Positions 1 to 60,528 are shown, counted from the first letter of the stretch. The stretch: 64,000 nucleotides of DNA from Ignavibacteriota bacterium (GCA_963787835.1 CAWBEI010000002.1:256001-320000); one strand, 5' to 3'. Translations and numbers: made by a program. The notes: generated by a model from the letters alone, not told the origin.

Positions 1-467
1 GGACTGGCTGCTGTTGATGTCAATGAAACGGTCTGAGCAGCAGACCACAAATTGCTGTGCGCAAGGTTCAGTGCTAGGTTCGACGTAATTCCATTGCCCG
101 TGAGCAAGGCATCCGTCGAGAATGCAGTCCACCCGACAACACTGCTGTTGTTGGTAGTTGAAAACGTGTTGGCCGTTCCTGGGGTTAGGTCCGTGACGGG
201 GGTGGGAATCACCCAGCTACATCCGCCGGTCGTGGTATTCGTAATCTGAAGCACTCCGCTGGCATTCGTGCCAGGGAACATGACAGGAATGCTTGCGCTC
301 AAGGTCGGGGAAGAGATCGTCAGGGTATTCGTAAGATCCGTTCCGTTCCCAGCAAGCGTGATCGATTTCGCATACATCTTATCGAACGCTTGCGCATAAC
401 TCCCCTGGCTCGTGCCAAGCAGAATGAGCACAATGGCTGCGACTCCAATAATGATCTTATGCGTCAT
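1..467 (-). CDS. Secreted fibre-like protein, paralogue of the array (3' end runs off the window; missing from ORF track)
   Basis: Manual translation from ATG at 467: MTHKIIIGVAAIVLILLGTSQGSYA-QAFDKMYAKSITLAGNGTDLTNTLTISSPT...GGCSW...LAHSNLWSAAQT, open to position 1; N-terminal module matches the neighbouring genes. Confidence 0.85.
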   Translation of the reverse strand, partial: MTHKIIIGVAAIVLILLGTSQGSYAQAFDKMYAKSITLAGNGTDLTNTLTISSPTLSASIPVMFPGTNASGVLQITNTTTGGCSWVIPTPVTDLTPGTANTFSTTNNSSVVGWTAFSTDALLTGNGITSNLALNLAHSNLWSAAQTVSLTSTAAS

Positions 468-473
468 GGCCGT

Positions 474-1814
474 TCAAAATTCTATCACCGTGATCGTTAC
501 GTTGTTGATGCTCGACGTAAAGGAAGTGGCTTCCGCCGTTAGATCAAGATCGATCCAGTAGGTGTTTGTGGATGACAATCCGGTAACAACGCTGGTTGCA
601 CTGAAAAAAAAGTAGTTGTCCGCGCTATAACTCTGCTCGGAAACCAAAGAGCCAGTGGTGGTTCCCACAGGGCCTGTGGTTTGGTAGGTCGGGGCAGCAC
701 CGGTCCCGAAGCAGATCTGTGCAGTCGAAATATCCGGGGGATTTCCGCTGCTGTTCCACAAATTCCCGGTGGCGATAATGAGCACCGTACCACTGAGCGA
801 CGGTTTGAAGGTCGCAGTCCCCCCAAATCCAAGCATAACATTATCTTTACTGTTCGTAGTCACATACGGGCCAGCGGTGAAGGTAAAGTTCGTGGCATTG
901 GGTGCGCCGGAAATAAAATTCGTACCGTCGGACCGAAGAATATTCCCGCTTGCGCCAGCCGACGCGGGGTAGGTTGCTGTGGAGGGAACGAAGTCCGTGC
1001 CGTTCCCGATCAACAGAGTTCCATTCGCCGCTGCGCCGTTAACTTTAATACCCGTGCCAAAACTTAATACTCCGCTGCCGGGGTCCGTCGGGGATGCAAT
1101 CCCGAGCGTGGCGCCACTGCTTGAAAAAAGATCGAAATCCGATGAATACCCGCCCGTACCGTTTTGTTGATCCTCGATGTCGAGATAGGAAGAGGTCGGA
1201 CTGCTGGAAGAATTGACAGGCACCACCTGCGCGATCCAGTCGATCGCTTCGCTCGAACCACCCCATCCCCGACCGTTCCAATGCAGGCGCGGCGAATATT
1301 CCTGCGTACCGGATGCTGCGGGAGTAGTATTGCTAAGCACAATTCCATCGGTCGAAGTGGCGCCGATGCTTTGAGATGAACCTTGCGCGGCCGTCCAGAC
1401 ATTCGTATGCGTGAGAATCATCGCAAGCGCCGTACTGACCCCGTTTCCGGTCAGCGTTACGCCATCGACGCCGAGCGAAGCCCATGCGATAGCGCTGCTG
1501 TTGTTGGTGATGAGAAACTGGTTTGCAGAACCGGTTGGAATATCACCCACAGGAAGCCCACTCCACGATAGCCCGCCGGAACCATTATTGACGAGCGCAC
1601 CCGCTGCGTTCGATGCCGGAAGCGTGAGTGTGATCGAACTGGTGGGGGTAGCTGCTGAGATCGTGAGCTTATTCGCCGTGCTCGTGCCGCCGCCAGCGAG
1701 AATGAGCGATTGAGCATATTTTTTATCGTACGCCTGGGCGCCAGCTCGCGTCGATATCCCTGCCGCAAATGCGAGCAGGGCTAAGCCAACCACGGCAAGG
1801 TTATTCACTTTCAT
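474..1814 (-). CDS. Secreted fibre-like protein, 446 aa, head type 1 (ends TVIEF)
   Basis: Signal peptide ending RAGA-Q; conserved N-module AYDKKYAQSLILAGGGT...GGLSW; NVWTAAQ motif; beta-rich C-terminal domain similar to that of 2461-4149. Confidence 0.85.
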   Translation of the reverse strand: MKVNNLAVVGLALLAFAAGISTRAGAQAYDKKYAQSLILAGGGTSTANKLTISAATPTSSITLTLPASNAAGALVNNGSGGLSWSGLPVGDIPTGSANQFLITNNSSAIAWASLGVDGVTLTGNGVSTALAMILTHTNVWTAAQGSSQSIGATSTDGIVLSNTTPAASGTQEYSPRLHWNGRGWGGSSEAIDWIAQVVPVNSSSSPTSSYLDIEDQQNGTGGYSSDFDLFSSSGATLGIASPTDPGSGVLSFGTGIKVNGAAANGTLLIGNGTDFVPSTATYPASAGASGNILRSDGTNFISGAPNATNFTFTAGPYVTTNSKDNVMLGFGGTATFKPSLSGTVLIIATGNLWNSSGNPPDISTAQICFGTGAAPTYQTTGPVGTTTGSLVSEQSYSADNYFFFSATSVVTGLSSTNTYWIDLDLTAEATSFTSSINNVTITVIEF

Positions 1815-2014
1815 GTGTTAGTGTACGATCCTGCGAATGATGTGGAACATCCCAGGACTTGGGGAAAAATCGTTCTTTCGATCAATTGCCAACGTTCGAG
1901 CAGCAATAAGCGAGTTATGCCATCCCCTGATTCAGCAACCTGATATCAAACGCTCTGGGGTGGTAATAGGTTTTCAGCCATTGTACAGTTCATAGAATGA
2001 AAATATTCCTATTG

Positions 2015-2446
2015 CTATTCAAGTTCAAACTGCTGCCATTGATGATCGAACCCGAACATTAGCAAATGAGTCTGCTGCCCTAACATTCCTTTTACCTGGG
2101 GATGATCGGATCGGTCAAAGAACAGCCGGAAAAACATTCTATTATGTGCGGAATTATCGCAAATCAGGATAAGGAATGTTCCGGGAGCCACATTATCCGT
2201 AGGAAGATAAACCGATACCACTCGGCTCGGCGTATCGTTTAACACCGGCAATCCGTTCAGCAAGTGCTGAACAGGCGGATAGGAATTAAGTTCTTTATCT
2301 TCGGTGAGTGTATATTGTGCCGAAGGAAATACAAAAGGCCCGCCGCCCGATGAAACGGAGATCGGAGGCGGAATCGTGCGCGGTGCGGAGCAACCGCTCC
2401 ACACACAGGTTGCAACAGTGAAAAGCCCTGCCGCCATTCTAGACAT
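2015..2446 (-). CDS. Small putative lipoprotein, 143 aa, stand-alone fibre-head-like domain
   Basis: ATG at 2446 with GAGGA 9 nt upstream; MSRMAAGLFTVATCVWSG-C lipobox-like signal; C-terminal PGTFLILICDN...LLMFGFDHQWQQF resembles head type 2; the ORF-track start (2536) overlaps the upstream gene. Confidence 0.6.
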   Translation of the reverse strand: MSRMAAGLFTVATCVWSGCSAPRTIPPPISVSSGGGPFVFPSAQYTLTEDKELNSYPPVQHLLNGLPVLNDTPSRVVSVYLPTDNVAPGTFLILICDNSAHNRMFFRLFFDRSDHPQVKGMLGQQTHLLMFGFDHQWQQFELE

Positions 2447-2460
2447 GTAGGGCAATCCTC

Positions 2461-4149
2461 TTATGGCAGTTCTATAACCGTGAACTGCACATTGTTCAAG
2501 GCCGAGCCCTGGCACCCACTCGCCCAGGTAGTCCAACCGTCAATCCAATAGGAGTGACCAACGGTCAAGCCGCTAACATAGGCGCTGACACAGAACGGCG
2601 CCTGCTCATCATGCTGACCAGACTCGACAGAAATAGTGCAAAGAGGTCCTAATGACGTTGCTGTTGAAGTAGCTGGTGTGGTACCCGCATGAGTTGGTGC
2701 TACATTCGTGGCGGCATCCTCATAATACATTTGGACCGCCGCTAAGGCGGTGGCTGTGCTGCTGCTGCTATTGGACATAAACAAATTTCCGGTGATGTTT
2801 ATGAGAAACCTTCCCGTCGATTTTGGCGTGAACGTATAGCTAGCCGAGTGTGAAAGCCCGACCCATTGCCCACTGGTCGTGGTATCATTACCTGGAGATG
2901 CGATGTTCGTGGACTGGTTATAATACTGCGGCGGTGAAGTGCTGCTGTTCCACTGCATGGTCACGGTATTACCCGTGATGTTTGAAACCTCCATTAATTG
3001 GCCGACTGCAGTAGGACCAGCAGCGGGAAGGATGTACGTGTATCCCGTAGTAGCCGCACCACCCTGAATCGTGGTTACAGTGGTTCCCGCCGTGGAATTT
3101 GCAAGGGCAAGAGATCCAGTCGTCGATGCAGCCTTGCCAAGGGTAAGCGCACCGGCAGAAGAAACCGACCAGTTCGAACTGGTGCCGAGGATATCCGTAT
3201 TGGTCGTCCCACCGGTAACATTGAGCGTGAGTCCGGTATTCGTTGCCGTGGTACCACTCCACGATCCGGTGGAACTTAAAGAAAGACCGGTCTTCGCAAT
3301 GCTTGTCGTGCTGCTGGTTGCATCGTTCAGGATGGTCGCTTCAGTGAAGGCGGTCGTCTTAGCAGGAGCGCCAGCCGTAACATCGAACCCTGCGCTGGTT
3401 TGCGCGGTGTATTGATTCGCGATAAAAGCGCCAGTCACGTCAGCAGCGACCAGCGAACGGAACGTTGGTGCCCCTGCTGATCCATTTGGCGCAGCAAATA
3501 CTGTGTTCGCCGCCTCAGAAGCCAGCGTGCCTGTTAATGTGCCCGTCGTAGTGACTGGGGAACCTGATATGGTAAAGATCGAGGGAAGTGCAAGGGCTAC
3601 GCTTGTCACGCCGGTATTAGCTATGGAGATGGAGCCGACGCCGTTCGTCACCGATACTCCGGTTCCTGCTGTAAGAGTGGTGAGCGAGTAATTCGTACCA
3701 TTCCCGATGAGCAGCTGACCGTTCGTAGGTGTCGTCGTCAGCCCCGTGCCGCCATTAGCGACCGGCAGTGCTGTGCCAGAAAGGGTTAACGCAAGCGTGC
3801 CGTTACTCGTGATCGGAGAACCACTGATCGAAAGGAAACTCGGAACCGTCATAGCAACTGAAGTGACAGTACCAATCGCCGACGTGGACCACGTTAGCCC
3901 ACCCGTTGTAGTATTAGAAACAAGGGCCAAACCGGTGGAACCCGGCAACGCCGCTGGCAGGGTAAGCGAGAAAGCTGTAGTCGGCGTCGGAGCAAGGATG
4001 GTGACCGTATGAACAACATCCGCCTGACTCCCTGCGAGCGTGATCGATTTAGCATACTCTTTATCCACTGCTTGTGCATGGGCACGCCCAGCCATGCCCA
4101 CTACCGCAGCGAGCATGATCAAATATACAAAGAAATGTTTGGTCTTCAT
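2461..4149 (-). CDS. Secreted fibre-like protein, 562 aa, head type 1 (ends TVIELP)
   Basis: Signal peptide RAHA-Q; N-module AVDKEYAKSITLAGS...GGLTW; GTVTSV and LPVANGGTG fibre motifs. Confidence 0.88.
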   Translation of the reverse strand: MKTKHFFVYLIMLAAVVGMAGRAHAQAVDKEYAKSITLAGSQADVVHTVTILAPTPTTAFSLTLPAALPGSTGLALVSNTTTGGLTWSTSAIGTVTSVAMTVPSFLSISGSPITSNGTLALTLSGTALPVANGGTGLTTTPTNGQLLIGNGTNYSLTTLTAGTGVSVTNGVGSISIANTGVTSVALALPSIFTISGSPVTTTGTLTGTLASEAANTVFAAPNGSAGAPTFRSLVAADVTGAFIANQYTAQTSAGFDVTAGAPAKTTAFTEATILNDATSSTTSIAKTGLSLSSTGSWSGTTATNTGLTLNVTGGTTNTDILGTSSNWSVSSAGALTLGKAASTTGSLALANSTAGTTVTTIQGGAATTGYTYILPAAGPTAVGQLMEVSNITGNTVTMQWNSSTSPPQYYNQSTNIASPGNDTTTSGQWVGLSHSASYTFTPKSTGRFLINITGNLFMSNSSSSTATALAAVQMYYEDAATNVAPTHAGTTPATSTATSLGPLCTISVESGQHDEQAPFCVSAYVSGLTVGHSYWIDGWTTWASGCQGSALNNVQFTVIELP

Positions 4150-4191
4150 GTATTAATTTTTACCGTTAATTCCGAAGATCTGACAGGATGC

Positions 4192-7100
4192 TTATTTGGA
4201 TGAGACCACTCTCCACCCGCCGGTAGTATTATAGGTGGAATCATAGATCAATGTCAATATTCCGTCGGGCGCGAGGATCAGGCTATTACCGCTACCACCG
4301 ACGAGATGAATCACGTCCCCAGCCGTACCTGCATCACTATTGAAAGTGATATTATAACTGCCCGTATTCACTAGGATCATGACGCGACCGTCCGCGCCAC
4401 CTGTGATACCGTTTACAGTAGCTCCCGACGGACCTCCTGCGGAAATTTTGAAATAGCTGTTGGTTGTGCTTAACGCCCAGGCATTAGTGCTGCTACCGCT
4501 GGTTAGTTGCGTTGGGCTGTTAGAAGTCAGCGCCGCGCCACCGAATGTTTGGGTACCGGTCCAGGTGTTAGCATTGGTAAGATTGATGCCGAGTTCATGC
4601 GCTGCAACGGTGCCTACCTGCAAGGTTGCATCGTAATTGAGCACATCCGCATTCAGGGTTTTATTAGCGGTGGAACTATTCACCGAACTCACAAGCGCTG
4701 CAGCCTGCGCCGCCGTCGTTGGGAGGGTTTGTGTACCGGTCCAAGTATTAGCATGAGTGACATCAAGCGTGAGCGTAGTGGTTCCACCAAGGGCAACCGA
4801 ACCGCCGCCGGCCAAACCAGAACCCGCCGTGACCGTAAGGCTCGGATTTGCAAGTGCTGAGTTCGGAACCGCAGAAGCGTTGATCGTCACCGCGCCTGTT
4901 CCTCCGCTTAAGCTGATACCCGTGCCAGCGACTGCGGAAGTTACACCTGTATTAGAAAGTGTTACCGTACCGCCAAGCGAAACCGGCGAACCCGATACCC
5001 CAAGACCCGTACCGCCTGTCACCGTGATGCTCGAATTGGCAAGCGCAGAGTTCGGAACCGACGTCGCGTTGACCGTGATCGACCCAGCGCCGTTCGTGAT
5101 TGAAATTCCCGTGCCACTCGTAAGTGTTCCAAGCGAAAGAGTATTACCCGTCGTGTTGCCGATCAGCAACTGGCCGTTCGTGTAAGAGGTCTGACCCGTG
5201 CCGCCATTGGCAACCGGAAGGGCTGTGCCCGAAAGTGTTACTCCAAAGGTGCCACTTGATGTAATCGTTGCAGGAGAAACGGAAAGAAATGTTGGAACCG
5301 TCATGCCGACCGAAGTGACCGACCCGCTATTCGTAGTATTCAGCACTGTACCCGTAAAACTGAGACCCGAGCCAAGCGTGATTTCCTCCGGAACCTGATT
5401 TGTAGAGGCCGTCGGATTACCGAGTAGCGTAGTGTGCGTCTCGCTCTGCATCTTGGCATAAGTAACCTTATTCGCCCCGATCGTAATGAGACCGGCATCG
5501 GTAATCGTCGCATCACCGCTCATTGCAACAGGGTTCCACGCAGGTGTGGATGAATTATAGATGAGCATGTTTGCATCTGCCACGCTTGCCATCGAACCGA
5601 GTGGGGATCCGTTGATCTTCTTTACAGCCGTTGTGCCCTGCGGTCCCGTTACATCACCGGCGAGATTACCACTGAAATTCGTTGCCGTAGTTCCTGCGGG
5701 AAGCGTCACGGTTCCCGTGAAGTTCACCGTGCCAGCAACCGTAGTGTTGCTCGGGCCGGTGTTATTGCCAATGTTAATGTTCATGGCACCGGAGGTATCG
5801 CCAATATTGATAGGATTCGTACCGGTCACATCGATATCGGTCGCTCCTCCCGTTGTGCGCAGCGTTCCAGTGTTGTTAAAGCTGGTATTCGAGGTCAGTG
5901 TGGTGAAAGCACCCGTGCCTGGAGTGGTTGCACCGACCGTGCCATTGAATGCTCCCGCGATGTTGTTGCTCGCGTTCGTGGCTGTGACGGCACCGGTGAG
6001 CGTTGAAGCATTGGTAACCGTGAGGCCTGTGCCTGCGCCATTGAAGGTAGCATCTCCGCCAACCGTCATGGCATTCGCTACGGCAAATGTTGTTGCATGA
6101 GAACCGTTGACCGTTGCCTGTGCTACGTGTGTCGAGGTGTTCTGAAGCGTCACGTCCTGCGTCATCATCGCGGTATCGGCAGTGGCCGAAGTAGCATCGC
6201 CGATGAAAATATCATTCTTCGCTAAACCGAGAGATGAGGAGGATAACGAACCTGCGGGAAGCGTCACCGTGCCAGTGAAGTTAACCGTGCCGGCAAGCGT
6301 GGTCACGCTCGGGCCGGTATTATTGCCAATGTTGATGTTCATGGCACCGGAGGTATCGCCAATATTGATGGGATTTGTGCCCGTCGTACTGATATCTGTC
6401 GTTCCCGTAGTGCGCAGCGTTCCGGTCGTTTGGATGCTTCCGGTCGTATTGATCACCGTCGAACCGCCGATATTGCCGGCGCCCGTGATCTGTGCTGCCG
6501 GATAGGTCAGTCCGCTCGGGAGCGTCTGTGACCATTGCGGCGTGCCGATCGGAGATGCCGCATTAGTGATAAGAACCGAATTAGCCGATGGGGCAAGTGG
6601 CGTAGCTACGTTGCTCGTATTGCCGACCAACATATATTGATTGGTAAGCCCGATAGAACCCGCTGTAACTGAACCGGAAGGTAACGTAACCGTGCCCGTG
6701 AAACTTACGGCACCGGCGAGATATGTGGTGCTGCTGTCGCCGGGACTGCCAGCGCTGCCGTTATTACCGATGGTAACCACACCGCCTGTGCCCGCAGTCG
6801 CATCGATACTCGTGTTCGCAGCCGGCGCTGAAGCCGGGCTGTTAATATTTGTGTTGCCATAGACATTGGTCGTGCTCGTGCTGTTACCAATGTTGTTCGT
6901 TCCACCCGTCGCGCTGTTATCAATATTGGTGGTCGGATTCGAACCGCTGTTATTGAGGCCACCACCGCTCGGTGTGAGGATTCCACCTGTGAAGCTTGCC
7001 TGACCGGTATTCGTAACATACCATGAATCACCTGTGATGTCATTCACACCGGAACCCGGCGTGGCAGCATTCGACAGGGTAAGCGGCGTTCCAGATCCAG

Positions 7101-7644
7101 CACCACTTGCTGGGGTGTTAATCGTTTGCTTAGCCGTCCATGTGTTAGAATTCGCAAGGTTGATACCAAGTTTATTTGAACTAACCGTCAATGTGGAATT
7201 GATGTTGAGGACATTAGCATCTAACGAGCCAACAGCAACTTGACCTGTTCCACTGCCATAGTTATTGAGCGCGCCAACAATATCCGTTCCAGCAGTATTT
7301 TCAATGACTGTCGCCAGGGAGGTTCCCCCAACATCACCGGATAAGTTCACAGTGAGTCCGGAGGCTGGGTTGGTCCAGCTAAGACCGCCCGTCGTGGTGT
7401 TCATGGTAAGGACATATCCGACAACGCCACCAGGCTCCGTGCCAGGGAACGTCAGCGTGAACGATCCTGCGGCCGGAGTCGCCGCCGAGATCGAAAGCGT
7501 GTGCTTCGTATCCGTCCCATTGCCGGCGAGGACCACCCCTGTGGCATGAACGGAATCGTAGGTTTGAGAAAAGGCGCGAGGGGCAATGCCAGCCAGTAAG
7601 GCAAGCGTCACCGCAACCGTCAAAAAAGTGATCTTGTTTTTCAT
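4192..7644 (-). CDS. Secreted fibre-like protein, ~1150 aa, head type 2
   Basis: Probable ATG at 7644 (MKNKITFLTVAVTLALLAGIAPRAFS-Q); three NTWTxxQ motifs, LPVANGGTG, VTYAKMQ..LLGNPT; ends GRVMILVN...LTLIYD...WRVVSSK. Confidence 0.88.
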   Translation of the reverse strand: MKNKITFLTVAVTLALLAGIAPRAFSQTYDSVHATGVVLAGNGTDTKHTLSISAATPAAGSFTLTFPGTEPGGVVGYVLTMNTTTGGLSWTNPASGLTVNLSGDVGGTSLATVIENTAGTDIVGALNNYGSGTGQVAVGSLDANVLNINSTLTVSSNKLGINLANSNTWTAKQTINTPASGAGSGTPLTLSNAATPGSGVNDITGDSWYVTNTGQASFTGGILTPSGGGLNNSGSNPTTNIDNSATGGTNNIGNSTSTTNVYGNTNINSPASAPAANTSIDATAGTGGVVTIGNNGSAGSPGDSSTTYLAGAVSFTGTVTLPSGSVTAGSIGLTNQYMLVGNTSNVATPLAPSANSVLITNAASPIGTPQWSQTLPSGLTYPAAQITGAGNIGGSTVINTTGSIQTTGTLRTTGTTDISTTGTNPINIGDTSGAMNINIGNNTGPSVTTLAGTVNFTGTVTLPAGSLSSSSLGLAKNDIFIGDATSATADTAMMTQDVTLQNTSTHVAQATVNGSHATTFAVANAMTVGGDATFNGAGTGLTVTNASTLTGAVTATNASNNIAGAFNGTVGATTPGTGAFTTLTSNTSFNNTGTLRTTGGATDIDVTGTNPINIGDTSGAMNINIGNNTGPSNTTVAGTVNFTGTVTLPAGTTATNFSGNLAGDVTGPQGTTAVKKINGSPLGSMASVADANMLIYNSSTPAWNPVAMSGDATITDAGLITIGANKVTYAKMQSETHTTLLGNPTASTNQVPEEITLGSGLSFTGTVLNTTNSGSVTSVGMTVPTFLSVSPATITSSGTFGVTLSGTALPVANGGTGQTSYTNGQLLIGNTTGNTLSLGTLTSGTGISITNGAGSITVNATSVPNSALANSSITVTGGTGLGVSGSPVSLGGTVTLSNTGVTSAVAGTGISLSGGTGAVTINASAVPNSALANPSLTVTAGSGLAGGGSVALGGTTTLTLDVTHANTWTGTQTLPTTAAQAAALVSSVNSSTANKTLNADVLNYDATLQVGTVAAHELGINLTNANTWTGTQTFGGAALTSNSPTQLTSGSSTNAWALSTTNSYFKISAGGPSGATVNGITGGADGRVMILVNTGSYNITFNSDAGTAGDVIHLVGGSGNSLILAPDGILTLIYDSTYNTTGGWRVVSSK

Positions 7645-7780
7645 TGCACTATTCTGAATCATATGGTTGGGACCCTGCTCGCGCACAACGTCCCCTGAAA
7701 ATTAAATTCCAAAAAATCGTTCAACTACTAATAACCGTGTCGTGATCTATTGGAAAAAGATCCCGAGGATCCGGGCCGCA

Positions 7781-7806
7781 GCAGCACATCGTTGATGATG
7801 TGCTGC
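7781..7806. terminator. Intergenic stem-loop (terminator or mRNA-stabilising hairpin) between fibre genes
   Basis: Perfect 10-bp stem GCAGCACATC / GATGTGCTGC with 6-nt loop; a weaker hairpin followed by TTTTT lies just downstream on the minus strand (~7754-7775). Confidence 0.45.
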
Positions 7807-7872
7807 AATGCGCGACCCGATCTCTTCGATATTCATTTCCATTACTCTTATCCTTCGATGCGTCGATCGCGA

Positions 7873-10800
7873 TTACTCCGCACCGATAAGACGCCACTTC
7901 GAACCGTCATAGATGAGCGTGACGGATCCACCGGGTGTCATAATCACATCACCGCCGTTAAGGACAAGGCTACCGTTGCTATGCAGCGTGATGTTGTTCG
8001 TTGGGTCGGTATTCACAAGCGTGATGATCTGACCCGCCGTCGTATTCGCACCCGTAATACTGTTAACCGTAACCGGCGCTGCCGTAGCTGTTAGCAGGTA
8101 AGCCGAATTGCTGGTGGTAAGCGTAAGCGTTGCCGCTGCAGCAACCGTTGCAGACGAAAGAGCCGTGCTTCCGAGGGTTGTCTGGCCAACCGCCGTAAGA
8201 GTTCCATTTAGCTGCGTAGCGTTCGTAACGGTAAAGCCACTTGCGCCGCTTGCTGCGGAAACAGTTACCTTCCCAACATCAGGTGTACCCGCCGTGAAAA
8301 CGATCCCGGCATCACCCGTCATCCCAACGTCCTCGGCATCACTGCTGGCATTGCCAACAAACAGATGACTGGTCGTCAGGCTAAGTGAACTCGGCGTTAC
8401 CGAACCCGCAGGCAACTTGACGGTACCTGTAAAATCGACATTGCCAGTAAGATTTACATCGCCATTGATGGTGGTTAAGCTGCTATCGAGTGTTCCGATT
8501 GTATGAGCTGTCCCGTTGTTACCAATGTTGATGTTTCCGAGCGTTGTTCCTGTACCCGCGTTAATGTTCGTGGTTCCCGTTGCACCGGCTGGGGACGGTA
8601 CATCGATCGTCGTGTTGCCCGTCGAGGTAACCGTGGAGAACGTCTGCAACGTGCTCCAGGAGTTACTATAAGCATCGTTGATGCTCAAGGTCGTACCAGA
8701 GCCAAGAACTGCAGAACCTCCACCGGAAAGTCCCGAACCGGCAGTGACCGTCGTCGCATCGTTCGCAAGATCGCCGTTCGTAACAGCCGAAGGTTGGATG
8801 GTCGTTTTGCCGGTGTTGTCAATATGCACATCACCACTCATCGCAACGCCTGTCGCTATGCTGGGAGTCGCGCCGTTGCCAACGAAGATGTCGGCAGAGG
8901 CAAGGCCGAGGTTAAGATCGCCGGCCGGGATATTCACGGCACCCGTGAAATTCACTGCGCCGGCGATATTCGTCGTGCTGCTGTCGCCAGGGTTTCCGAC
9001 GCTACCGTTGTTACCAATGTTGATCACGCCCTCGCTGCCCACTCCAGCATCGAGGTTTGTCGTGGAATTTACGATGCTGCCGGTAGTTGAGTTGTTAATG
9101 TTCGTATTCGCACCGTTGATCGTCGTCGTGCTACCAGTACCAGATGAGCCGATCGTGTTCGAGATATTGGAGGCATTACCATCCGATGTGTTCACGCCAC
9201 CGTTGAAGGTCGCTACACCCGTGTTTGTAACGTTCCATGTGTTGCCAGTGCCGCTAACATCGAGTGACGTGCCTGAAACATCCGTGTTATTCAAAGACAG
9301 CGCTGCACCCGCGACTCCGTTGGTACTACTCGAAGCCGTAAGCGTTGGGATCGTTAAGTCGCTTGGAAGCGTCGTTGCCCATTCTGGCGTGGTGTGGTCG
9401 CTTCCAGCTGTGATGAACACCGAATTGGAAGATGGCGCAAGTGGCGCAGCCACGTTCGGAGTTCCGTTGTTGCCTACAAAGATGTTCTCATACGCAAGGC
9501 CGAGGTTAAGATCGCCGGCAGGAATATTAACCGCGCCAGTGAAATTAACCGTGCCAGCCATATTCGTCGTGCTGCTGTCGCCAGGGGTTGTCCCACCGTT
9601 GTTACCGATGTTGATCACACCTTCAGTGCCAGTTCCCGCATCGATGTTAGTCGTCGAGTTTACGACCGTATTGGCAGGCGAGTTGTTGAGGTTGGCATTC
9701 CCCGTCTCAGTCAAACCACCATTGAACGTCTGCAAGGTGCTCCAGGTGTTCCCATAAGCATCGTTAATGCTCAAGGTCGTACCAGAGCCAAGAACTGCAG
9801 AACCTCCACCGGAAAGTCCCGAACCGGCAGTGACCGTCGTCGCATCGTTCGCAAGATCGCCGTTCGTAACAGCCGAAGGTTGGATGGTCGTTTTGCCGGT
9901 GTTGTCAATATGTACGTCACCGCTCATCGCAACGCCTGTTGCTATGCTGGGAGTAGCGCCGTTGCCAACGAAGATGTCGGCAGAGGCAAGGCCGAGGTTA
10001 AGATCGCCCGCTGGGATATTCACCGTTCCAGTGAAATTAACTGCACCAGCAAGATAGGTTGTGCTGCTGTCGCTGTAAGGAGGTGTAGCACCGGCAGTGC
10101 CGTTGTTACCAATCGTGACGACCCCCATCGAGCCCGTCGCGTCGATGTCTGTATTATTATCCGGCCCTGTTGCTGGGCTGTTAATATTCGTGTTGCCCAG
10201 CACAGTGGTCGTGCTCGGGCCGGCGCTATTGCCAATGTTAATGTTCATGGCGCCGGAGGTATCACCAATATTGACAGGACTCGTACCCGTCGTATTGATA
10301 TCTGCCGCTCCTCCTCCAGTAGTGCGAAGGATTCCGGTTGTCTGGATGCTACCCGTCGTGTTGATAACCGTCGAACCGCCGATATTGCCAGCGCCGGTGA
10401 TCTGTGCAGCCGGGTAGGTCAATCCGCTCGGAAGCGTCTGAGACCATTGCGGCGTGCCGATCGGAGATGCCGCATTGGTGATAAGAACCGAATTGGCCGA
10501 TGGCGCAAGTGGCGTAGCATCGTTGCTTGTATTACCAACCAACATGTATTGATTGGTAAGCCCGATCGAACCTGCCGTGACCGAGCCGGAAGGCAATTGA
10601 ACCGTTCCAGTGAAATCAACCGCACCGGCGAGATACGTCGTGCTGCTATCTCCGGAACCAGTGCCATTATTACCAATTGTTACGACGCCCTTATCGCCAG
10701 TCGCATCAATGTCGGTGTTAGCATCCGGCCCCGTAACTGGGCTGTTAATATTCGTGTTGCCATAGACATTGGTTGTGCTCGTGCTGTTACCAATGTTGTT

Positions 10801-11532
10801 CGTACCACCCGTCGCGCTATTATCAATGTTGGTGGTCGGATTCGAACCACTGTTATTGAGGCCACCGCCGCTTGGCGTGAGGATTCCACCAGAGAAGCTT
10901 GCCTGGCCCTGGTTCGTTACATACCATGAGTCGCCAGAAATGTCATCACTGCCCGCCGCACCAGTATTTGTTACCGTAAGTGGGGTGGTAGCCGTTGAGG
11001 AGCTGAAGTTTTGCGCACCCGTCCATGTGTTAGGATTCGTAAGGTTGATACCGAGAGCATTGGTGCTAACCGTCAACGTGCTATTGATGTCCAGCACATT
11101 AGCATCCAAGGAGCCAACGGCAACTTGGCCGATTCCACTGCCGTAGTTATTGAGTGCTCCAACGATGTCCGTTCCAGCGGTATTTTCAATGACCGTAGCT
11201 GCGGACGTCCCCCCCACATCACCGCTCAAATTCACGGTGAGTCCGGAGGCAGGGTTGGTCCAGCTCAGACCCCCCGTCGTGGTGTTCATGGTAAGCACAT
11301 ACCCGACAACGCCGCCAGGCTCCGTGCCCGGGAACGTCAGCGTGAACGAGTTTGCCGCAGGAACGGCCGCGTTAAGCGTCACCGTTTTTCCGGTGTTCGT
11401 TCCCCCTCCGGCAAGTATCACTTCCGTGCTGAAGTCGGATTTATAGGTTTGCGCGTTCACAGTAGTGGCCGGCAGCAGCATCGCATATGCAGCAAGCATC
11501 GCGACTGGAATCGCAAGTTTAAGGTATTTCAT
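7873..11532 (-). CDS. Secreted fibre-like protein, 1219 aa, head type 2
   Basis: Signal peptide TVNA-Q; N-terminal third nearly identical in protein to 4192-7644; repeated DSSTTxxAGxVxFTGxV units; ends GQIITLVN...VTLIYDGSKWRLIGAE. Confidence 0.9.
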   Translation of the reverse strand: MKYLKLAIPVAMLAAYAMLLPATTVNAQTYKSDFSTEVILAGGGTNTGKTVTLNAAVPAANSFTLTFPGTEPGGVVGYVLTMNTTTGGLSWTNPASGLTVNLSGDVGGTSAATVIENTAGTDIVGALNNYGSGIGQVAVGSLDANVLDINSTLTVSTNALGINLTNPNTWTGAQNFSSSTATTPLTVTNTGAAGSDDISGDSWYVTNQGQASFSGGILTPSGGGLNNSGSNPTTNIDNSATGGTNNIGNSTSTTNVYGNTNINSPVTGPDANTDIDATGDKGVVTIGNNGTGSGDSSTTYLAGAVDFTGTVQLPSGSVTAGSIGLTNQYMLVGNTSNDATPLAPSANSVLITNAASPIGTPQWSQTLPSGLTYPAAQITGAGNIGGSTVINTTGSIQTTGILRTTGGGAADINTTGTSPVNIGDTSGAMNINIGNSAGPSTTTVLGNTNINSPATGPDNNTDIDATGSMGVVTIGNNGTAGATPPYSDSSTTYLAGAVNFTGTVNIPAGDLNLGLASADIFVGNGATPSIATGVAMSGDVHIDNTGKTTIQPSAVTNGDLANDATTVTAGSGLSGGGSAVLGSGTTLSINDAYGNTWSTLQTFNGGLTETGNANLNNSPANTVVNSTTNIDAGTGTEGVINIGNNGGTTPGDSSTTNMAGTVNFTGAVNIPAGDLNLGLAYENIFVGNNGTPNVAAPLAPSSNSVFITAGSDHTTPEWATTLPSDLTIPTLTASSSTNGVAGAALSLNNTDVSGTSLDVSGTGNTWNVTNTGVATFNGGVNTSDGNASNISNTIGSSGTGSTTTINGANTNINNSTTGSIVNSTTNLDAGVGSEGVINIGNNGSVGNPGDSSTTNIAGAVNFTGAVNIPAGDLNLGLASADIFVGNGATPSIATGVAMSGDVHIDNTGKTTIQPSAVTNGDLANDATTVTAGSGLSGGGSAVLGSGTTLSINDAYSNSWSTLQTFSTVTSTGNTTIDVPSPAGATGTTNINAGTGTTLGNINIGNNGTAHTIGTLDSSLTTINGDVNLTGNVDFTGTVKLPAGSVTPSSLSLTTSHLFVGNASSDAEDVGMTGDAGIVFTAGTPDVGKVTVSAASGASGFTVTNATQLNGTLTAVGQTTLGSTALSSATVAAAATLTLTTSNSAYLLTATAAPVTVNSITGANTTAGQIITLVNTDPTNNITLHSNGSLVLNGGDVIMTPGGSVTLIYDGSKWRLIGAE
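8670..10045. repeat. Near-identical ~290-bp direct repeat pair inside the 1219-aa fibre gene (~8670-8960 and ~9755-10045)
   Basis: ATGCTCAAGGTCGTACCAGAGCCAAGAACTGCAGAACC... at 8681 and 9767 (offset 1086); encodes duplicated GDLNLGLASADIFVGNG...SGTTLSINDAY. Confidence 0.9.
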
Positions 11533-11616
11533 GTGTTGTTTCGTGAATTAGATTAATGGAGATGAAGTTAGGAATAATCGCAAAAATCGCTAAGTTATCG
11601 CAAAAACACTTTGTAG

Positions 11617-13017
11617 CTAATCGTTTGTCGAGACCAGTACCCACTTACCAAGGTGAGATGGGTCCGCATTGTCGTTCGTGTCGTAAAGAAATGTTGCCGC
11701 CCCTTTTTGGCCAAGTAGAATGGGCTTGCCGCCAGGGAGATCGAACTCGTCCACGGAAGCAGAATTCGCATCCAGGTTCGTGATCTGGATGATGTCGCCA
11801 GGATCGCTGCTCACGTTTGCGATCGTTACCATTCTACCGTCTGGAACGCTCGTGCTTGAAATTCCGCTGACGTTGATCTGCTTCGCAGGACTATTGGTGT
11901 TCGAAAGACGAATATACCCAACGGAATTAGCAACTGTATAAGGACTTTGATCCGTCGAGACGGCGTCAGATGCAATTGTTGGGGTTACTGTCGCCCCGTT
12001 GGTGATGTAGGACACCGCATGGGTGGTAGGATCCACGCCAAGCACCTGTCCGTCTGTACCCTGAGGAAGTCTTGAGAGGGCCGTTGTAGAACTTGCAACA
12101 AGAATGTCTCCGGTGGCGTACGTGCTATTGCCAGTTCCTCCTGCGACAGCGTTGACGGGTGCTGCCGGAGCATTCGCATTCAGCGAGGCCGCGATGTCGG
12201 TGCTGGCCGATTGGTTCGCCGCGATCGTTGGATTTGGATAGGTATTTGCAAGGTCGCCTCCGGCATTTCCGGAGGGAGCCGCTCCGATGGCGGTAAGTTG
12301 TCCGCCTGGGGTGACCGTGATGGTCGTATTATCAACAGAAACCACGCCAACGGAACTGGACGTTGCGATCGGAAGGTCTCCCGTGGGAATCGTTCCGGTG
12401 TTCGTTAAATTATCATTAGCATCGGTAAAGACCGGCATCGAGGCCGTAAGGCCAGCGATGTTCACATTTCCGGAGGTAACCGAAAGCGCGGTACCGCTCG
12501 CAACGGTATTGCTCGCTACGATCGGTGCGTTCGCATTAGATATATTCGAAAAGCTTTTTTGACCACTAATTGCCTGAGCGCCCTGGGTCATGACGAAACT
12601 CGCATTGGCTCCGGATGCTGGGATTGTGTCGATAAATGTGGATGTGCCTGGGTTCGCGGCCTGAATTTTAACATAGCCGTTTCCTCCAACATTGTAGAAT
12701 TTGAGCGTTCCCGTAAGCGGGGTGTAGGGAGTGAGCGCATTAGATGGTTCGCCGATATTAGCGTTTTGAAGATGAAGTATTTGCTCCTCACCCATATTGA
12801 GATTGGAGACGGAACGGCCGTTAAACGTGAGCGTGTTCGAGTTTGAACCGCCGAGGACCAGATTCCCGTCGATCGTGGTGTTGCCAGAAGATGTATTAAG
12901 AAATACATCCTGCTGAACGGTCAGGGTTCCATTGATGACTTGATTCTGCGCGAATACCGTATCAACTCCTCCGAGCAGGAAGAGGCACGCTAAGCCTATT
13001 TTAGTTATTTTTTGCAT
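11617..13017 (-). CDS. Secreted fibre-like protein, ~466 aa, head type 2
   Basis: Probable ATG at 13017; signal peptide TVFA-Q; QAISGQKSF, GGDLANTYPNPT and AGGTG motifs; ends GRMVTIAN...ATFLYD...WVLVSTND. Confidence 0.85.
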   Translation of the reverse strand: MQKITKIGLACLFLLGGVDTVFAQNQVINGTLTVQQDVFLNTSSGNTTIDGNLVLGGSNSNTLTFNGRSVSNLNMGEEQILHLQNANIGEPSNALTPYTPLTGTLKFYNVGGNGYVKIQAANPGTSTFIDTIPASGANASFVMTQGAQAISGQKSFSNISNANAPIVASNTVASGTALSVTSGNVNIAGLTASMPVFTDANDNLTNTGTIPTGDLPIATSSSVGVVSVDNTTITVTPGGQLTAIGAAPSGNAGGDLANTYPNPTIAANQSASTDIAASLNANAPAAPVNAVAGGTGNSTYATGDILVASSTTALSRLPQGTDGQVLGVDPTTHAVSYITNGATVTPTIASDAVSTDQSPYTVANSVGYIRLSNTNSPAKQINVSGISSTSVPDGRMVTIANVSSDPGDIIQITNLDANSASVDEFDLPGGKPILLGQKGAATFLYDTNDNADPSHLGKWVLVSTND

Positions 13018-13112
13018 GTTTCGCAATGTTCACAAAATTCGCACTTGTAACCCTCATCCAGCCCCGCGATGCATCACCATAATGCGGCGCGAAACCGGAA
13101 AAAAGACCGAAC

Positions 13113-16100
13113 CTATCGGCTCGGATTCACAATTATATAACCTACATTCACCGTCTTATTTGCCGTTGAAGTTTTACCGCTCAGTACATTCTGAGTAAGC
13201 ACCAAAGTAAAGTGACCGCTTGTCTGCCCCGTCGCTTGCACCGTGTATGTTGACTTTCCAGCATCGGGATCATTTTGAACCGTCGCCATAATAATGCTTG
13301 TAGATGAGCAGTACTCATTGCCCACCTGAAAATCTGCTTCTTGAATGTAAGGACCAGATTCAGATGCAAATCCCGACGCAAGTTGAACCAACCCCGAAGG
13401 GCCTTCCGATCCGGATACAGCGTTGTTTACCGTCGTGACACCGCTGCCGTTTTCGCCGTTCGGATTCGACGTCATTCCCATCGTCAGCTCACCGTTCTCG
13501 ACATCCAGCGCCACATTTGTTTGGCCGTCTCCCGTTTCCCCATTTCCGCCCTGCGCAAGCACGCCGATGCTTTCAGTGTTGGTGGCAGAATTGCCGCTCG
13601 CAAGACCCCAAACGCCAATTACGGTTCTTCCCGAGGAATTACCTGCGGTTCCGACCGCCTCACCACGAACGCCAAAGGAGCCCGTGAAACCAGAGCCGCC
13701 AAAATTATAGTCATTATTCAGTTCACTATACGAGGTGGTCGCGTTGGTTACACCATAGATTCCAGAAATAGAGCCTTGTGCAAGAATACCGTTCGGGTAA
13801 TTAGCACTTGTAATTCCGATAGCAGCACCTGAATGGTTTGTATTGTCGGAGTTCGAACCCGCCATCTTGATCGAGTAAGTAGGAGTCGATGCCGTGCTGG
13901 AAAGCCCACCCGCAGTAAAAATATCACCTGAAACGCCCTCCAATTTGGCTGCGATGTCCGGTGCATGTGTGGTACCTACAAGGAGGCCAAAAGAACCCGC
14001 TGTAGCAGTAGTCGTTCCGTTGACGGTAATTCCAGCCGAGGATGCACCCGGTGTGAAAGTCGCCGCGATTGCAGTGTTGGTCGATGTGCTGCCGGTTGCA
14101 GAAACATTCAGACCGGTTGCAGTTCCACCGGATGTAGCAATAGACTTAATAGTGGCCCCCAACGCGCTTGCAACACCCGCAGAAGGGTATTCCACATCAA
14201 ATAGCTCATCTCCCGTAGTCGCCGTAATCTGTGCATTGGCAGGAGCGACATTATAATTCACGGCTGTACCGGTGTTCACAGTATTAAGCACTGTACCGTT
14301 AAAGGTTAGCCCCGATCCCAGCGTGATCTCGCTCGGAGCGGCCGATGCTCCGGTCGGATTACCGAGAAGAGTGACCGTGCTTTCCTGCTGAATATCGCCA
14401 TACGTCACTGCATTCGCGGTGATCGATGTGGCATTACCAACCGACGTCACCGGACCCGTCAGGTTCGCATCCGTCGTTACCGTGGCCGCATTACCAGAGA
14501 TGCTGATCCCCGCTGTGCCCGCCGAAATATTCGCCGCCGTCAGGTTCGTGAGTGCCGAGCCATTACCCGCAGCATAGTTCGTACCTGTTAACGTATTCAT
14601 CGCCGCAGTCACCGTGATCGGCGCAGCGCCCGTGAACGTCACACCGTTGATCGTTGCACCCGGAGAAAGCGCGGAAGCCGTCGCTGCATTACCCGATGTG
14701 TTCGACGTGATCGTAGCCGGAAGGTCCGTCGCTGCGATCGAACGGAAGGCCGGAACACTGCCCGCCGTCGTATTCGCAAAAAATTGATTTGCACTCGCTA
14801 CCGTCGATAATGTAAACGACAGTGCAGGAGTCGATGTCGGCGTGGCAACCGACGTCGTGAACAATGGGCTCAAGTTGCCGCTCGAGAACGAGGTAACTGT
14901 GCCGCCGCTACCGGTGGCTGTCAGGGTCGTTCCACTAAAGGCAAGACCGGAGCCGAGCGTGATCTCGCTCGGAGCGGCCGATGCTCCGGTCGGATTACCG
15001 AGAAGAGTGACCGTGCTTTCCTGCTGAATATCGCCATACGTCACTGCATTCGCGGTGATCGATGTGGCATTACCAACCGACGTCACCGGACCCGTCAGGT
15101 TCGCATCCGTCGTTACCGTGGCCGCATTACCAGAGATGCTGATCCCCGCTGTGCCCGCCGAAATATTCGCCGCCGTCAGGTTCGTGAGTGCCGAGCCATT
15201 ACCCGCAGCATAGTTCGTACCTGTTAACGTATTCATCGCCGCAGTCACCGTGATCGGCGCAGCGCCCGTGAACGTCACACCGTTGATCGTTGCACCCGGA
15301 GAAAGCGCGGAAGCCGTCGCTGCATTACCCGATGTGTTCGACGTGATCGTAGCCGGAAGATCCGTTGCCGCGATCGAACGGAACGCCGGAGTGCTGCCAC
15401 CGGTCGTGTTCGCGAAAAATTGATTCGCTGCAGTCACCGTCGATAATGTGAATGACAGTGCAGGAGTCGATGTCGGCGTGGCAACCGACGTCGTGAACAA
15501 TGGGCTCAAGTTGCCGCTCGAGAACGAGGTAACTGTGCCGCCGCTACCGGTGGCTGTCAGGGTCGTTCCACTAAAGGCAAGACCGGAGCCGAGCGTGATC
15601 TCGCTCGGAGCGGCCGATGCTCCGGTCGGATTACCGAGAAGGGTGACCGTACTTTCCTTCTGAATATCGCCGTACGTCACTGCATTCGCCGTGATCGATG
15701 TGGCATTACCAACCGACGTGACCGGACCCGTCAGGTTCGCATCCGTCGTTACCGTCGCCGCATTGCCACTGGTGCTGTTCGTGATCGCGCCGCTGCATCG
15801 ATAACCGATGCCGAGATGCTGCCCACTGTCGGGTTCGGATAGGTGCCCGTCAGGCCGCCGCCCGCTGTGCCGCTGGGTGCCGCTGTCACCGTAATGTTCG
15901 AACCGCCTGTGAAGAGTACACCATTGATCTGGGCACCCGGAGAAAGCGCGGAAGCCGTCGCTGCATTACCCGATGTGTTCGATGTGATCGTAGCCGGAAG
16001 GTCCGTTGCTGCGATCGAACGGAAGGCCGGAACACTGCCCGCCGTCGTATTCGCAAAAAATTGATTTGCACTCGCTACCGTCGATAATGTGAATGACAGT

Positions 16101-18835
16101 GCAGGGGTCGAGGTCGGCGTGGCAACCGACGTTGTGAACAATGGGCTCAAATTCCCGCTTGAGAACGAGGTAACCGTTCCGCCGCTACCGGTAGCCGTCA
16201 GGGTCGTTCCACTAAAGGCGAGACCGGAGCCAAGCGTGATCTCGCTCGGAGCGGCCGATGCTCCGGTCGGATTACCAAGAAGGGTGACCGTGCTTTCCTT
16301 CTGAATATCGCCGTACGTCACCGCATTTGCTGTGATCGATGTGGCATTACCAACCGACGTCACCGGACCCGTCAGGTTCGCATCCGTCGTTACCGTGGCC
16401 GCATTACCAGAGATGCTGATCCCCGCTGTGCCCGCCGAAATATTCGCCGCCGTCAGGTTCGTGAGTGCCGAGCCATTACCCGCAGCATAGTTCGTACCTG
16501 TTAACGTATTCATCGCCGCAGTCACCGTGATCGGCGCAGCGCCCGTGAACGTCACACCGTTGATCGTTGCACCCGGAGAAAGCGCGGAAGCCGTCGCTGC
16601 ATTACCCGATGTGTTCGACGTGATCGTAGCCGGAAGGTCCGTTGCTGCGATCGAACGGAACGCAGGAACACTGCCCGCCGTCGTATTCGCAAAAAATTGA
16701 TTTGCACTCGCTACCGTCGATAATGTGAATGACAGTGCAGGAGTCGAGGTCGGCGTGGCAACTGACGTCGTGAACAATGGGCTCAAGTTGCCGCTCGAGA
16801 ACGAGGTGAGCGATCCACTGTTTGTAGTGTTCAAAACAGAGCCCGTAAAGCTTAAACCCGAACCCAGCGTGATCTCGCTCGGAGCCTGGTTCGTCGCAGC
16901 CGTCGGATTGCCAAGCAATGTGGTGTGCGTCTCGTTCTGAATATTCGCATACGTCACTGCACCATTCGTGATCGTCGTCGCATTACCGACCGATGTGACC
17001 GGACCCGTCAGGTTCGCATCCGTCGTTACCGTGGCCGCATTGCCACTGGTGCTGTTCGTGATCGCGCCCGCTGCATCGATAACCGATGCCGAGATGCTGC
17101 CTACCGTCGGGTTCGGATAGGTGCCCGTCAGGCCGCCGCCCGCTGTGCCGCTGGGTGCCGCTGTCACCGTAATGTTCGAACCGCCTGTGAAGAGTACACC
17201 ATTGATCTGGGCACCCGGAGAAAGCGCGGAAGCCGTCGCTGCATTACCCGATGTGTTCGATGTGATCGTAGCCGGAAGGTCCGTTGCTGCGATCGAACGG
17301 AAGGCCGGAACACTGCCCGCCGTCGTATTCGCAAAAAATTGATTTGCACTCGCTACCGTCGATAATGTGAATGACAGTGCAGGGGTCGAGGTCGGCGTGG
17401 CAACCGACGTTGTGAACAATGGGCTCAAATTCCCGCTCGAAAATGAGGTGAGCGATCCACTATTCGTGGTGTTCAAAACAGAGCCCGTAAAGCTTAAACC
17501 CGATCCCAACGTGATCTCGCTCGGAGCCTGGTTCGTCGCAGCCGTCGGATTGCCAAGCAATGTGGTGTGCGTCTCGTTCTGAATATTCGCATACGTCACT
17601 GCACCATTCGTGATCGTCGTCGCATTACCAACCGAGGTCACCGGACCCGTCAGATTCGCATCCGTGGTTACCGTGGCCGCATTGCCACTGGTGCTGTTCG
17701 TGATCGCGCCCGCTGCATCGATAACCGATGCCGAGATGCTGCCTACTGTGGGGTTCGGATAGGTGCCCGTCAGGCCGCCGCCCGCTGTGCCGCTGGGTGC
17801 CGCTGTCACCGTAATGTTCGAAGCACCCGTGAAGTTTACACCGTTGATCTGGGCACCCGGAGAAAGCGCTGAAGCCGTCGCTGCATTACCCGTCGTGTTC
17901 GACGTGATCGTAGCCGGAAGGTCCGTTGCTGCGATCGAACGGAACGCCGGAGCGCTACCACCCGCTAAGTTAGCGAAAAATTGATTTGCACCCGCCACCG
18001 TCGATAACGTGAACGACAGCGCTGGGGTCGTCGTCGGTGTCGCAACCGATGTTGTGAACAATGGACTCAGGTTCCCACTTGAAAACGACGTCACGGTACC
18101 ACTGCTCGCCGTGACATTCAATGTGGTTCCGGAAAAGCTAAGCCCAGAACCCAGCGTGATCTCCTCCGGAGCCTGTCCTGATCCCGTCGGATTGCCCAAC
18201 AAAGAGTGAGCACCCTCATTCTGGATCTTACCGTAGGAAATGGTGCTATTTGTGATGTCATTGTTAACTATGGCACTCCAGCTTGGCGGCGTTGAGCCAT
18301 GCAACACCGTGTTCGCACCACCGTTCGCGATAGTAACGAAATTCCCGCTGCCATCGGTCGAGACATTCGAATTCGGAGTCAAGGCACCGGCTGCCGTTAC
18401 GATCCCAAGTTGTGCCGTCGTGGCATAGTCCCACGCACCATCGCTTCCGCCGTTATGGCCATCGCCGCTTAAGCTTGGCTGGTTCGGATACAGCCAGTAG
18501 GGAATAGTTACCGTGGTAGGATACGGAGACGCTGTTGGTGTTAATGGGCCAACATAAAGAAATCCGCTCTGGGCATTATTCGTCGGAGGAATGGGAACTT
18601 CCCAGATAAGAGGCGCATACGGCGGCGAGGTATGAGACCAGGCATTTGCTTCCGGACTTCCATAGAGCGGCGCCTGAATTGAAACGGTGTGTCCATGATA
18701 ATCATCCAGCACGAGCGCACCGCCCGCAATACCTCGAACCTGACCGATGGCATCTTGAGTTAACACGGTTCCCGCAAAGGCAACGAGAAAAAGGCATGCA
18801 CGAAAGGGAGAAGGGGAAAGATTGGCTTTTTTCAT
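13113..18835 (-). CDS. Giant secreted fibre-like protein (~1907 aa if the 1-nt deletion at ~15790 is repaired), head type 3
   Basis: ATG at 18835 (MKKANLSPSPFRACLFLVAFAGTVLTQDAIG-Q); ORFs 15749-18982 and 13113-15680 join by restoring one C: GATCGCGCCGCTGCA at ~15783 versus GATCGCGCCCGCTGCA in sister repeats at ~17060 and ~17702. Confidence 0.85.
14270..18230. repeat. About six tandem 636/642-bp intragenic repeats (212/214 aa)
   Basis: Equivalent positions at 14812, 15448, 16089, 16725, 17367 and 18009 (spacings 636, 641, 636, 642, 642). Confidence 0.92.
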
Positions 18836-30938: not shown

Positions 30939-30940
30939 CA
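30913..30940. repeat. Heptamer tandem repeat YTCAGCA x4 spanning the sigma stop codon
   Basis: TTCAGCA TTCAGCA CTCAGCA CTTAGCA. Confidence 0.75.
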
Positions 30941-30947
30941 TGTTGCT

Positions 30948-32504: not shown

Positions 32505-32507
32505 TTT

Positions 32508-34091: not shown

Positions 34092-34143
34092 GGTCAAATC
34101 TGATTTTGTGTGCAAGCTGATTTTTTTTCGTATATTTACATAT

Positions 34144-41344: not shown

Positions 41345-41370
41345 TCTGTTAAAATTGATCTATTATTTCG

Positions 41371-45549: not shown

Positions 45550-45587
45550 TCTACTAAAAAATTATTACCGAGAAGAGCGCCGAAGAA

Positions 45588-48656: not shown

Positions 48657-48804
48657 TCGAAAAACGCTCTTGCTCTGAAGCGAACCTACCGCGTTCGTTT
48701 GATTACGAACGGTTCGCTCTGGTGCAAGAACACATGAAGGGATTTTAAGTAGCGGAAAGCTCAAAAATTAATATGCAGATGGGGATGGAACAGCGGGATC
48801 GATA

Positions 48805-60391: not shown

Positions 60392-60406
60392 AGGTATTCT
60401 CCTCGT

Positions 60407-60515
60407 GTAGCTCCGACTTTTAGTCGGAGTGCGGGCTTTTCCAGCCCGTCATGTAAACGTTAGTTCAACCCGTTCGGGCTTGAAAGCCCGGGCAAAGACT
60501 AAAAGTCTGTGCTAC
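60407..60515. repeat. GTAG-type REP doublet (REPIN-like) with nested palindromes
   Basis: GTAGCTCCGACTTTTAGTCGGAG ... AGACTAAAAGTCTGTGCTAC, enclosing two CGGGCT..AGCCCG hairpins. Confidence 0.8.
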
Positions 60516-60528
60516 CCGTTTTTTTACT

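Follow-up and report, generated by a model that had tools for sequence, protein, structure and literature searches.

Gene order in an array of phage-tail-fibre-like genes suggests a segmented fibre encoded by a bacterial chromosome

We analysed a stretch of 64,000 nucleotides from an Ignavibacteriota bacterium (G000:C2:256001-320000, hereafter the window; genome GCA_963787835.1, 3.57 Mb, 97.9% complete), in which a chromosomal array of genes for fibre-like proteins lies on the minus strand between mdh and hflX. The first-pass annotation of the window had reported at least seven co-directional fibre genes and had guessed that their products might assemble together. The genes are real, and the array extends to nine of them, one lying wholly left of the window; they are read in the order g7 to g0, together with a small lipobox gene. 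The guess of co-assembly gains support from a rule of gene order that we describe here. We give about even chances to the reading that the array encodes mosaic, phage-tail-fibre-like and likely three-chain adhesive fibres outside the cell, and that the products of g6, g5, g4 and g0–g3 are likely joined head to tail into one segmented fibre. The strict gene order suggests that this fibre is long and probably displayed at the surface, with tips that can be exchanged.

Gene order and domain pairing

The proposed first segment is g6 (466 aa; 11617..13017; array genes are all on the minus strand, and positions are those of the window unless prefixed with a contig), which ends in a head designated B' (11620..12009). 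The proposed middle segment, g5 (1219 aa; 7873..11532), starts with a class K peptide, namely the first 13 residues of the mature protein and the proposed docking peptide (11413..11451), and ends in a B-type head (7891..8142). The proposed third segment, g4 (1150 aa counted from its ATG; 4192..7644), combines a class C start with a B-type head and is followed by the tip-type fibres g3 (562 aa; 2461..4149), g2 (446 aa; 474..1814), g1 (461 aa, class C start; window 1..467, whole gene G000:C2:255082-256467) and g0 (445 aa; G000:C2:253740-255077). Ahead of them stands g7, a root-type repeat fibre with an LDD start (13113..18835), and a separate root-type family member, g8, lies beyond hflX (26266..27549, minus strand) and has a counterpart at the same place in genome G202.

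Gene order and domain pairing point to the following scheme. Every gene product would form its trimer unaided. At the C-terminus of g6, the B' jelly-roll trimer would capture the conserved N-terminal QT[YF]KxD[FWY]AT peptides of g5; in turn, the class C N-termini of g4 would be bound by the g5 B head, and the g4 B head would accept any one of the four alternative tip fibres g3, g2, g1 and g0. A cell anchor would be needed by the first segment only, and g7 and g8, both of the root type, would each stand alone. Fibre length and tips would change through recombination between stalk repeats, whose sharing is itself observed. The resulting anatomy would comprise a root with a variable base and a fixed head, a connector with both ends fixed and a variable length, and a tip with a fixed start and a variable head. 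The fuller proposal is that of a daisy-chained, cell-encoded fibre, in which Sec-exported trimers are polymerised via two head-peptide codes (B'/K and B/C) and one anchored root, MAT_N-like or of three other modules, bears extension segments and alternative lectin tips; this we hold tentatively, as somewhat short of an even bet.

The evidence comes from the order of N-termini and heads in related loci. We sorted N-termini into root classes (LDD, YQG, GIGT and g6-type), class K (QT[YF]KxD[FWY]AT) and class C, and scored 61 C-terminal heads in the fetched loci. Thirty of the 32 heads scoring at least 76 bits precede a K gene, and the remaining two belong to K genes themselves, which precede C genes. 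The 29 heads below that score never stand ahead of a K gene; the next gene is of class C for 19 of them by pattern, or for 20 when g4 is counted by eye. The 30 genes upstream of K genes start with any root class and vary in length from <300 to ~2000 aa. Three later loci added two more B'-K cases, from families f7 and f6, and one strong head followed by mdh. Altogether, the gene after a non-K gene with a B' head is a K gene in 32 of 33 loci, which come from three families. A motif-first scan of metagenomes returned nine matches, seven of them K genes, each with a B' gene upstream (7/7); two repeat genome loci.

The other ends of the genes follow the same pattern. A B-type head closes 21 of the 24 K genes of this family (two of the others are frameshifted and one carries another head) and 18 of 23 new library K proteins of 293–855 aa, the other five ending mid-stalk. 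The 36 class C genes are spread over 14 head clusters. Among 35 class K peptides, positions Q1, K4, T9 and L13 are conserved at 3.8–4.3 bits, partly owing to the pattern used for selection, and profile matches that included the first residues sat at protein N-termini in the library list. At the position of the first segment, at least four N-terminal modules replace one another among relatives, and sequence shows one of them to be the MAT_N-like YQG domain. In family f6 the K-like gene has a terminal coiled-coil tail, S74-like as judged by eye. We discarded a WxLVSxN-stop DNA pattern as a marker, its matches outside the known loci being mostly due to chance.

Folds of the fibres and their relation to known systems

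The likeness to phage fibres noted in the first-pass annotation was borne out by profile searches and by the folds of the heads. PHROG tail-fibre families match g3 (E 3.8e-8), g4 (E 3.7e-18) and g7, the stalk repeats, those of g7 among them, match DUF5907, and the g5 head matches Phage_depo_C above the cut-off (PF25692, E 1.6e-7). The stalks, described earlier as nearly free of charge and rich in T/G/S/A/N, are indeed so: those of g2–g6 contain 58–65% T/G/S/A/N and 4–7% charged residues, as compared with 36% and 20% in genome open reading frames (ORFs) longer than 300 aa. A recount also found the eight reported copies of NxW(T/S)xxQ in four genes (g1, g2, g4 and g5), far above 500 shuffles (mean 0.018, maximum 1). 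From fold and family matches, the array proteins are likely three-chain fibres.

At least three head types occur within the array. The head of g2 (mature residues 280–420; 477..899) was modelled with predicted local distance difference test (pLDDT) values mostly of 70–92, and the model resembles the PLTL lectin (Z 12.6, root-mean-square deviation (rmsd) 2.4, 122 aligned residues), Pgp3 (Z 11.7) and the Bdellovibrio MAT protein Bd2734 (Z 10.9, rmsd 2.5, 120 aligned), consistent with a TNF/C1q-like fold. The heads of g1 and g3 appear TNF-like by homology, that of g1 to g2, and the g3 head clusters with those of g0–g2; the TNF-like heads of g0–g3 are probably sugar-binding. The model of the g6 head (pLDDT 75.6) is a small beta jelly-roll of the sort found in phage tailspikes and gp9/gp10 XD domains. 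It resembles the C-terminus of a tailspike (Z 8.1, 85 residues aligned at rmsd 2.7), entry 6o38 (Z 7.6), a KP1 baseplate chain (Z 5.4) and residues 80–179 of CBA120 TSP4 (Z 5.3), with gp10 and gp9 themselves matching only at E ~0.5. It also has structural matches among phage fibre proteins in a viral library, and no match among 50,697 phage records. A sequence search of g4 against the PDB gave 0 matches. In the ESM Atlas the N-region of g5 is closest to viral clusters, at 0.90, which we take as a lead only.

The array had been proposed as a wholly new kind of fibre system. That claim falls, because fibres with these traits have already been described as the MAT (mosaic adhesive trimer) fibres with which Bdellovibrio bacteriovorus binds its prey: signal-peptide-bearing, trimeric and phage-like, with non-S74 tips, and with no surface partner identified in the available part of the source (PMC10769870). 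With the non-S74 MAT group (NF053851) the array shares the signal peptide, a phage-like mosaic stalk, a common stalk repeat, a large paralogue family, variable C-terminal tips including TNF-like ones (in MAT fibres at large the tips are S74, TNF-like or other beta-sandwiches) and the lack of an autotransporter anchor. It differs in that its genes lack the MAT base domain of ~130 aa, starting directly with a short fibre module, and form an ordered, operon-like row; head-to-tail joining of MAT proteins is not described in the portion of PMC10769870 that we could draw on.

The genome family comprises 23 ORFs with the short array-type N-module, 10 with a 125-aa YQG domain and two with a GIGT module, placed in three arrays and as singletons. 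The beta-rich base domain Bdello_MAT_N (NF053851, ~130 aa after the signal peptide) matches none of 11 array ORFs; six YQG paralogues match it, all below the cut-off (best E 6e-9), and no alignment was obtained between the YQG profile and that of the array N-module. The two groups share other parts. A YQG-domain paralogue is 78–81% identical to g7 over up to ~840 aa, another has a head 30–42% identical to those of g0–g3, and the body of the array N-module recurs inside giant fibres. Of the top library matches to the g5 N-terminal profile, the four tested all score above the cut-off as MAT proteins, and the match lies at internal repeats. Thus, the array appears to function as MAT fibres do and draws on the same pool of parts, but lacks the base domain that defines them; the kind of fibre is not new, and the new part is the gene-order grammar.

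Several paralogues elsewhere in the genome deserve mention. L190 (G000:C2:368775-370946), a YQG protein that ends in the only S74 chaperone of the genome, has the most MAT-like architecture, yet no Bdello_MAT_N match at E 0.001. L010 (G000:C4:370147-383480) encodes a giant YQG-domain fibre of >4,100 aa with long, near-identical repeat blocks in common with g7. Two further fibre arrays (L002–L004) lie at G000:C1:10003-33200 and C4:4240-17452; the C4 array repeats the B'-K-C order, and the C1 array has root-type starts only.

Serial and branched fibres have precedents in phages. The long tail fibre of T4 is a series of separate trimeric fibre proteins (gp34-gp35-gp36-gp37) with the receptor tip on the last, as proposed here; in the part of the source available, it differs as a virion component without signal peptides, with a monomeric knee protein and dedicated chaperones (PMC5537660), and we found no sequence or fold match of the array to its junctions. 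The gp10-like XD domains of CBA120 TSP1–4 (PMC8825819) and the branching domain and conserved N-terminal docking peptide of KP32-like phages (PMC13352976), as far as the sections at hand describe them, offer another parallel, in which one fibre bears a small jelly-roll trimer and the next a conserved peptide or domain at its N-terminus; the head of g6 also shows a weak fold resemblance to TSP4-N. In those phages, however, the docking domain lies near the N-terminus and makes branches, whereas in the array it would be C-terminal and extend the fibre. In the literature, we found segmented, chained fibres described for phages and none for cells; the tables of MAT relatives in other bacteria in PMC10769870 may bear on this.

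Genomic setting, distribution and export

The array is flanked by mdh, mutL and ftsY on one side and by a sensor kinase gene, hflX and an oxidoreductase gene on the other. The host lineage is apparently Kapaibacteriia-like: the nearest relatives of its HflX are Bacteroidetes or Ignavibacteria metagenome-assembled genomes at 73–88% identity, with Kapaibacterium near 60%, and a homologue of one paralogue is assigned to Ca. Kapabacteria. Parts of the window sequence are present in soil and peat metagenome runs, a test stretch being covered in three of four runs examined. Matches to g2 occur in 19 of 34 other genomes of the family and in 0 of 26 genomes from other families of the class, with one weak match among 200 phylum genomes and no relative among named genomes. 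The N-module is present in 24 of 24 good family genomes and a B-type head in 21 of 24. The hflX-mdh locus carries fibre genes in all seven congeners fetched, which were chosen for having g2 matches, and no viral contig contained the K motif (0 matches). The array is chromosomal and lineage-wide.

The reported range of gene sizes, 446 to ~1907 aa, reflects real gene calls, of which the upper value requires that g7 be read across a one-base frameshift near 15789. At this site the g7 repeat has one G more in two other copies, and the extra base is present in one short-read contig (run X2), which stops short of copy-specific sequence. Elsewhere in the window, hflX (23431-24731) and a class A penicillin-binding-protein gene (53563-55837) are each split into two overlapping frames, and two fibre paralogues on C4 are also split by frame. 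These splits indicate indel errors in the assembly, and the g7 frameshift is likely one of them. A terminator-like hairpin at the end of g7 (13107..13124, minus strand) is a consensus match only; 16 such hairpins were found in the region against 20 expected by chance. Promoter and terminator counts are near chance level.

The earlier inventory of genes was sound except that it missed the 143-aa lipobox protein encoded between g3 and g2 (2015-2446, minus strand). This gene has a homologue at the same place in genome G206 and a second copy that ends the C1 array. We considered the lipoprotein as a lipid-anchored B head and general anchor but found no support for this: profile comparisons to fibre heads were not significant, and the protein was found in 2 of 35 family genomes.

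All array members have an N-terminal signal peptide, judged by eye from a basic start, a hydrophobic core and cleavage before Gln. The Gln, which had been put forward as a shared feature, is no special mark: it follows the signal peptide in 132 of the 161 genome ORFs bearing a C-terminal domain (CTD; loose pattern), and it recalls the Bacteroidetes Q-rule (PMC5837995, seen in part). The absence of a type IX secretion system (T9SS) CTD from the array was confirmed. None of 10 array ORFs ends in PNP..GxY, and TIGR04183 matched none of 11, as compared with two of two control neighbours; no other T9SS family matched in the array. The genome has SprA, the sole export family above the cut-off among those searched, together with at least 150 T9SS type A tails, a large secretome for a genome of 3.57 Mb. 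Secretin, autotransporter and sheath families were not found in genome searches, and ShlB gave one sub-threshold match.

The earlier statements that no YadA anchor, S74 domain or phage gene is linked to the array stood up to profile searches and to inspection of 42 flanking proteins, and no linked prophage or contractile-injection locus was found. Trimeric autotransporter adhesins of the YadA family are Sec-exported trimeric fibres with modular stalks, as the array proteins would be. The array differs from them in its C-terminal variable head and in that the YadA anchor (PF03895) was found neither in its genes nor in the genome. The suggested search for a barrel or secretin gene left of the window disclosed none linked to the array. 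TonB-dependent barrels come no closer than ~14.5 kb to the left of g0, where they belong to an iron/cobalamin-type uptake operon. A gene for a PorE-like OmpA-domain lipoprotein directly follows the fibre array in three relatives (L050:19342-20000, L150:7681-9594 and L164:10501-12041). We did not adopt this protein as the export partner, the best match in the present genome being on another contig and not after the array. The leads for outer-membrane passage are a CTD-independent T9SS route or an unrecognised barrel; PMC13689555, as far as it was accessible, adds nothing on MAT export.

The region has other features as well. The window contains a run of genes (40217-48764) whose products are a 1058-aa TonB-like barrel, a secreted protein of 1392 aa that has no Pfam match, a PorV-like barrel and a GWxTD protein. 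It also contains an ECF sigma factor gene (30096-36759), after which come genes for an anti-sigma-like protein with a barrel-like domain at its end, for a lipoprotein and for a beta-propeller protein of the T9SS type, and a DUF1800-DUF1501 pair followed by a T9SS-tail frame overlapping DUF1501, possibly one frameshifted gene (58687-62322). Outside it, ORFs at G000:C2:1907869-1916767 are compositionally foreign-looking (Ala/Arg-rich), one having a myxobacterial-type sorting-like tail by eye, which may indicate contamination or transfer.

Alternative readings and meaning of the gene order

A number of points weigh against a segmented fibre. We chose the score threshold, and likewise the patterns for K and C, after inspecting the data, and nine heads were in the training alignment. 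The 33 loci are kin and not independent, so that they may reflect few events, and DNA spanning a head and the next N-terminus stays linked if recombination occurs only inside stalks. The grammar has exceptions: one strong head precedes mdh instead of a K gene; B-like heads end genes with no following K or C gene in 9 of the 29 weak cases (g4 counted by eye) and in three of three in another check; and three of six K genes of family f7 carry other heads, and can thus be tips. On the structural side, the match of the g6 head to TSP4 is weak (Foldseek E >0.001), and the matched domain is XD1, described in the consulted part of PMC8825819 as a spacer that does not bind trimeric partners, docking being the role of XD2/XD3. 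The B-type fold also serves as a depolymerase tip, and the B heads may be ordinary ligand-binding tips. The g2 stalk was modelled as a monomer with low confidence (pLDDT <50 over residues 1–251), and the N-terminus of g6 is of no known class, leaving its anchor unexplained.

Alternatively, the genes may encode independent MAT-like trimeric adhesins, each making its own fibre that is held by a common surface partner or released. The gene order would then be inherited synteny, the block of a head and the next N-terminus remaining intact while stalks recombine. We regard this as the most serious competitor, though as less likely than the segmented fibre. Large, near-identical stalk blocks are common to distant paralogues, and giant fibres contain many copies of the N-module body, a general stalk repeat, both of which fit this explanation, as do the kinship of the loci and the resemblance of B-type folds to depolymerase tips. 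It does not account well for the behaviour of heads, as tip genes in the arrays do swap them (14 clusters among 36 genes), whereas K genes of this family almost never do so. Moreover, B' and K remain linked at other chromosomal sites, with four root modules and in three families, and library matches reaching the first residues lay at protein N-termini.

The pairing of B' and K might instead be functional in export or folding, as in piggy-back secretion or a chaperone-like step, and not in a lasting fibre. The same linkage data are compatible with such a role, the array proteins lack a known export tail despite SprA and at least 150 T9SS tails, and in one relative the linked K gene is accompanied by five others that are scattered and have varied tips. 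Some root-type fibres stand alone and have no B' head, however, so that export cannot depend on B' in general, and the three-tier order with two head-peptide pairs fits a chain better; we consider this explanation unlikely.

Monomeric beta-rich S-layer or matrix proteins would share the low-charge composition, and the poor stalk model leaves the fold undecided, but the heads match trimeric TNF-family and phage-fibre folds and the stalk repeats match phage fibre and MAT families, making this very improbable. Least probable, and largely refuted, is a remnant or domesticated phage tail or contractile-injection locus with fibres decorating a particle: the stalks and heads are homologous to phage fibres, but the array lies among housekeeping genes, the 42 flanking proteins include no phage structural family (Pfam; integrase was not searched genome-wide), the genome has no sheath family, an array occupies hflX-mdh in all congeners fetched, the K motif was found in no viral contig and all members carry signal peptides.

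MAT-type fibres are known from one predator, and their export and anchoring are a standing question. The present genome places some 35 MAT-like fibre genes and four interchangeable base modules in a Bacteroidota-related soil lineage. The strict head-to-next-N-terminus grammar recasts the display of anchorless fibres as the binding of two fragments, a 130-aa head and an N-terminus of 13 to 70 aa. If this binding takes place, it would be a new way to make long adhesive appendages out of short secreted pieces, a cellular counterpart of the segmented and branched fibres of phages, and it would provide a portable trimer-to-trimer docking tag, useful as a modular pair.

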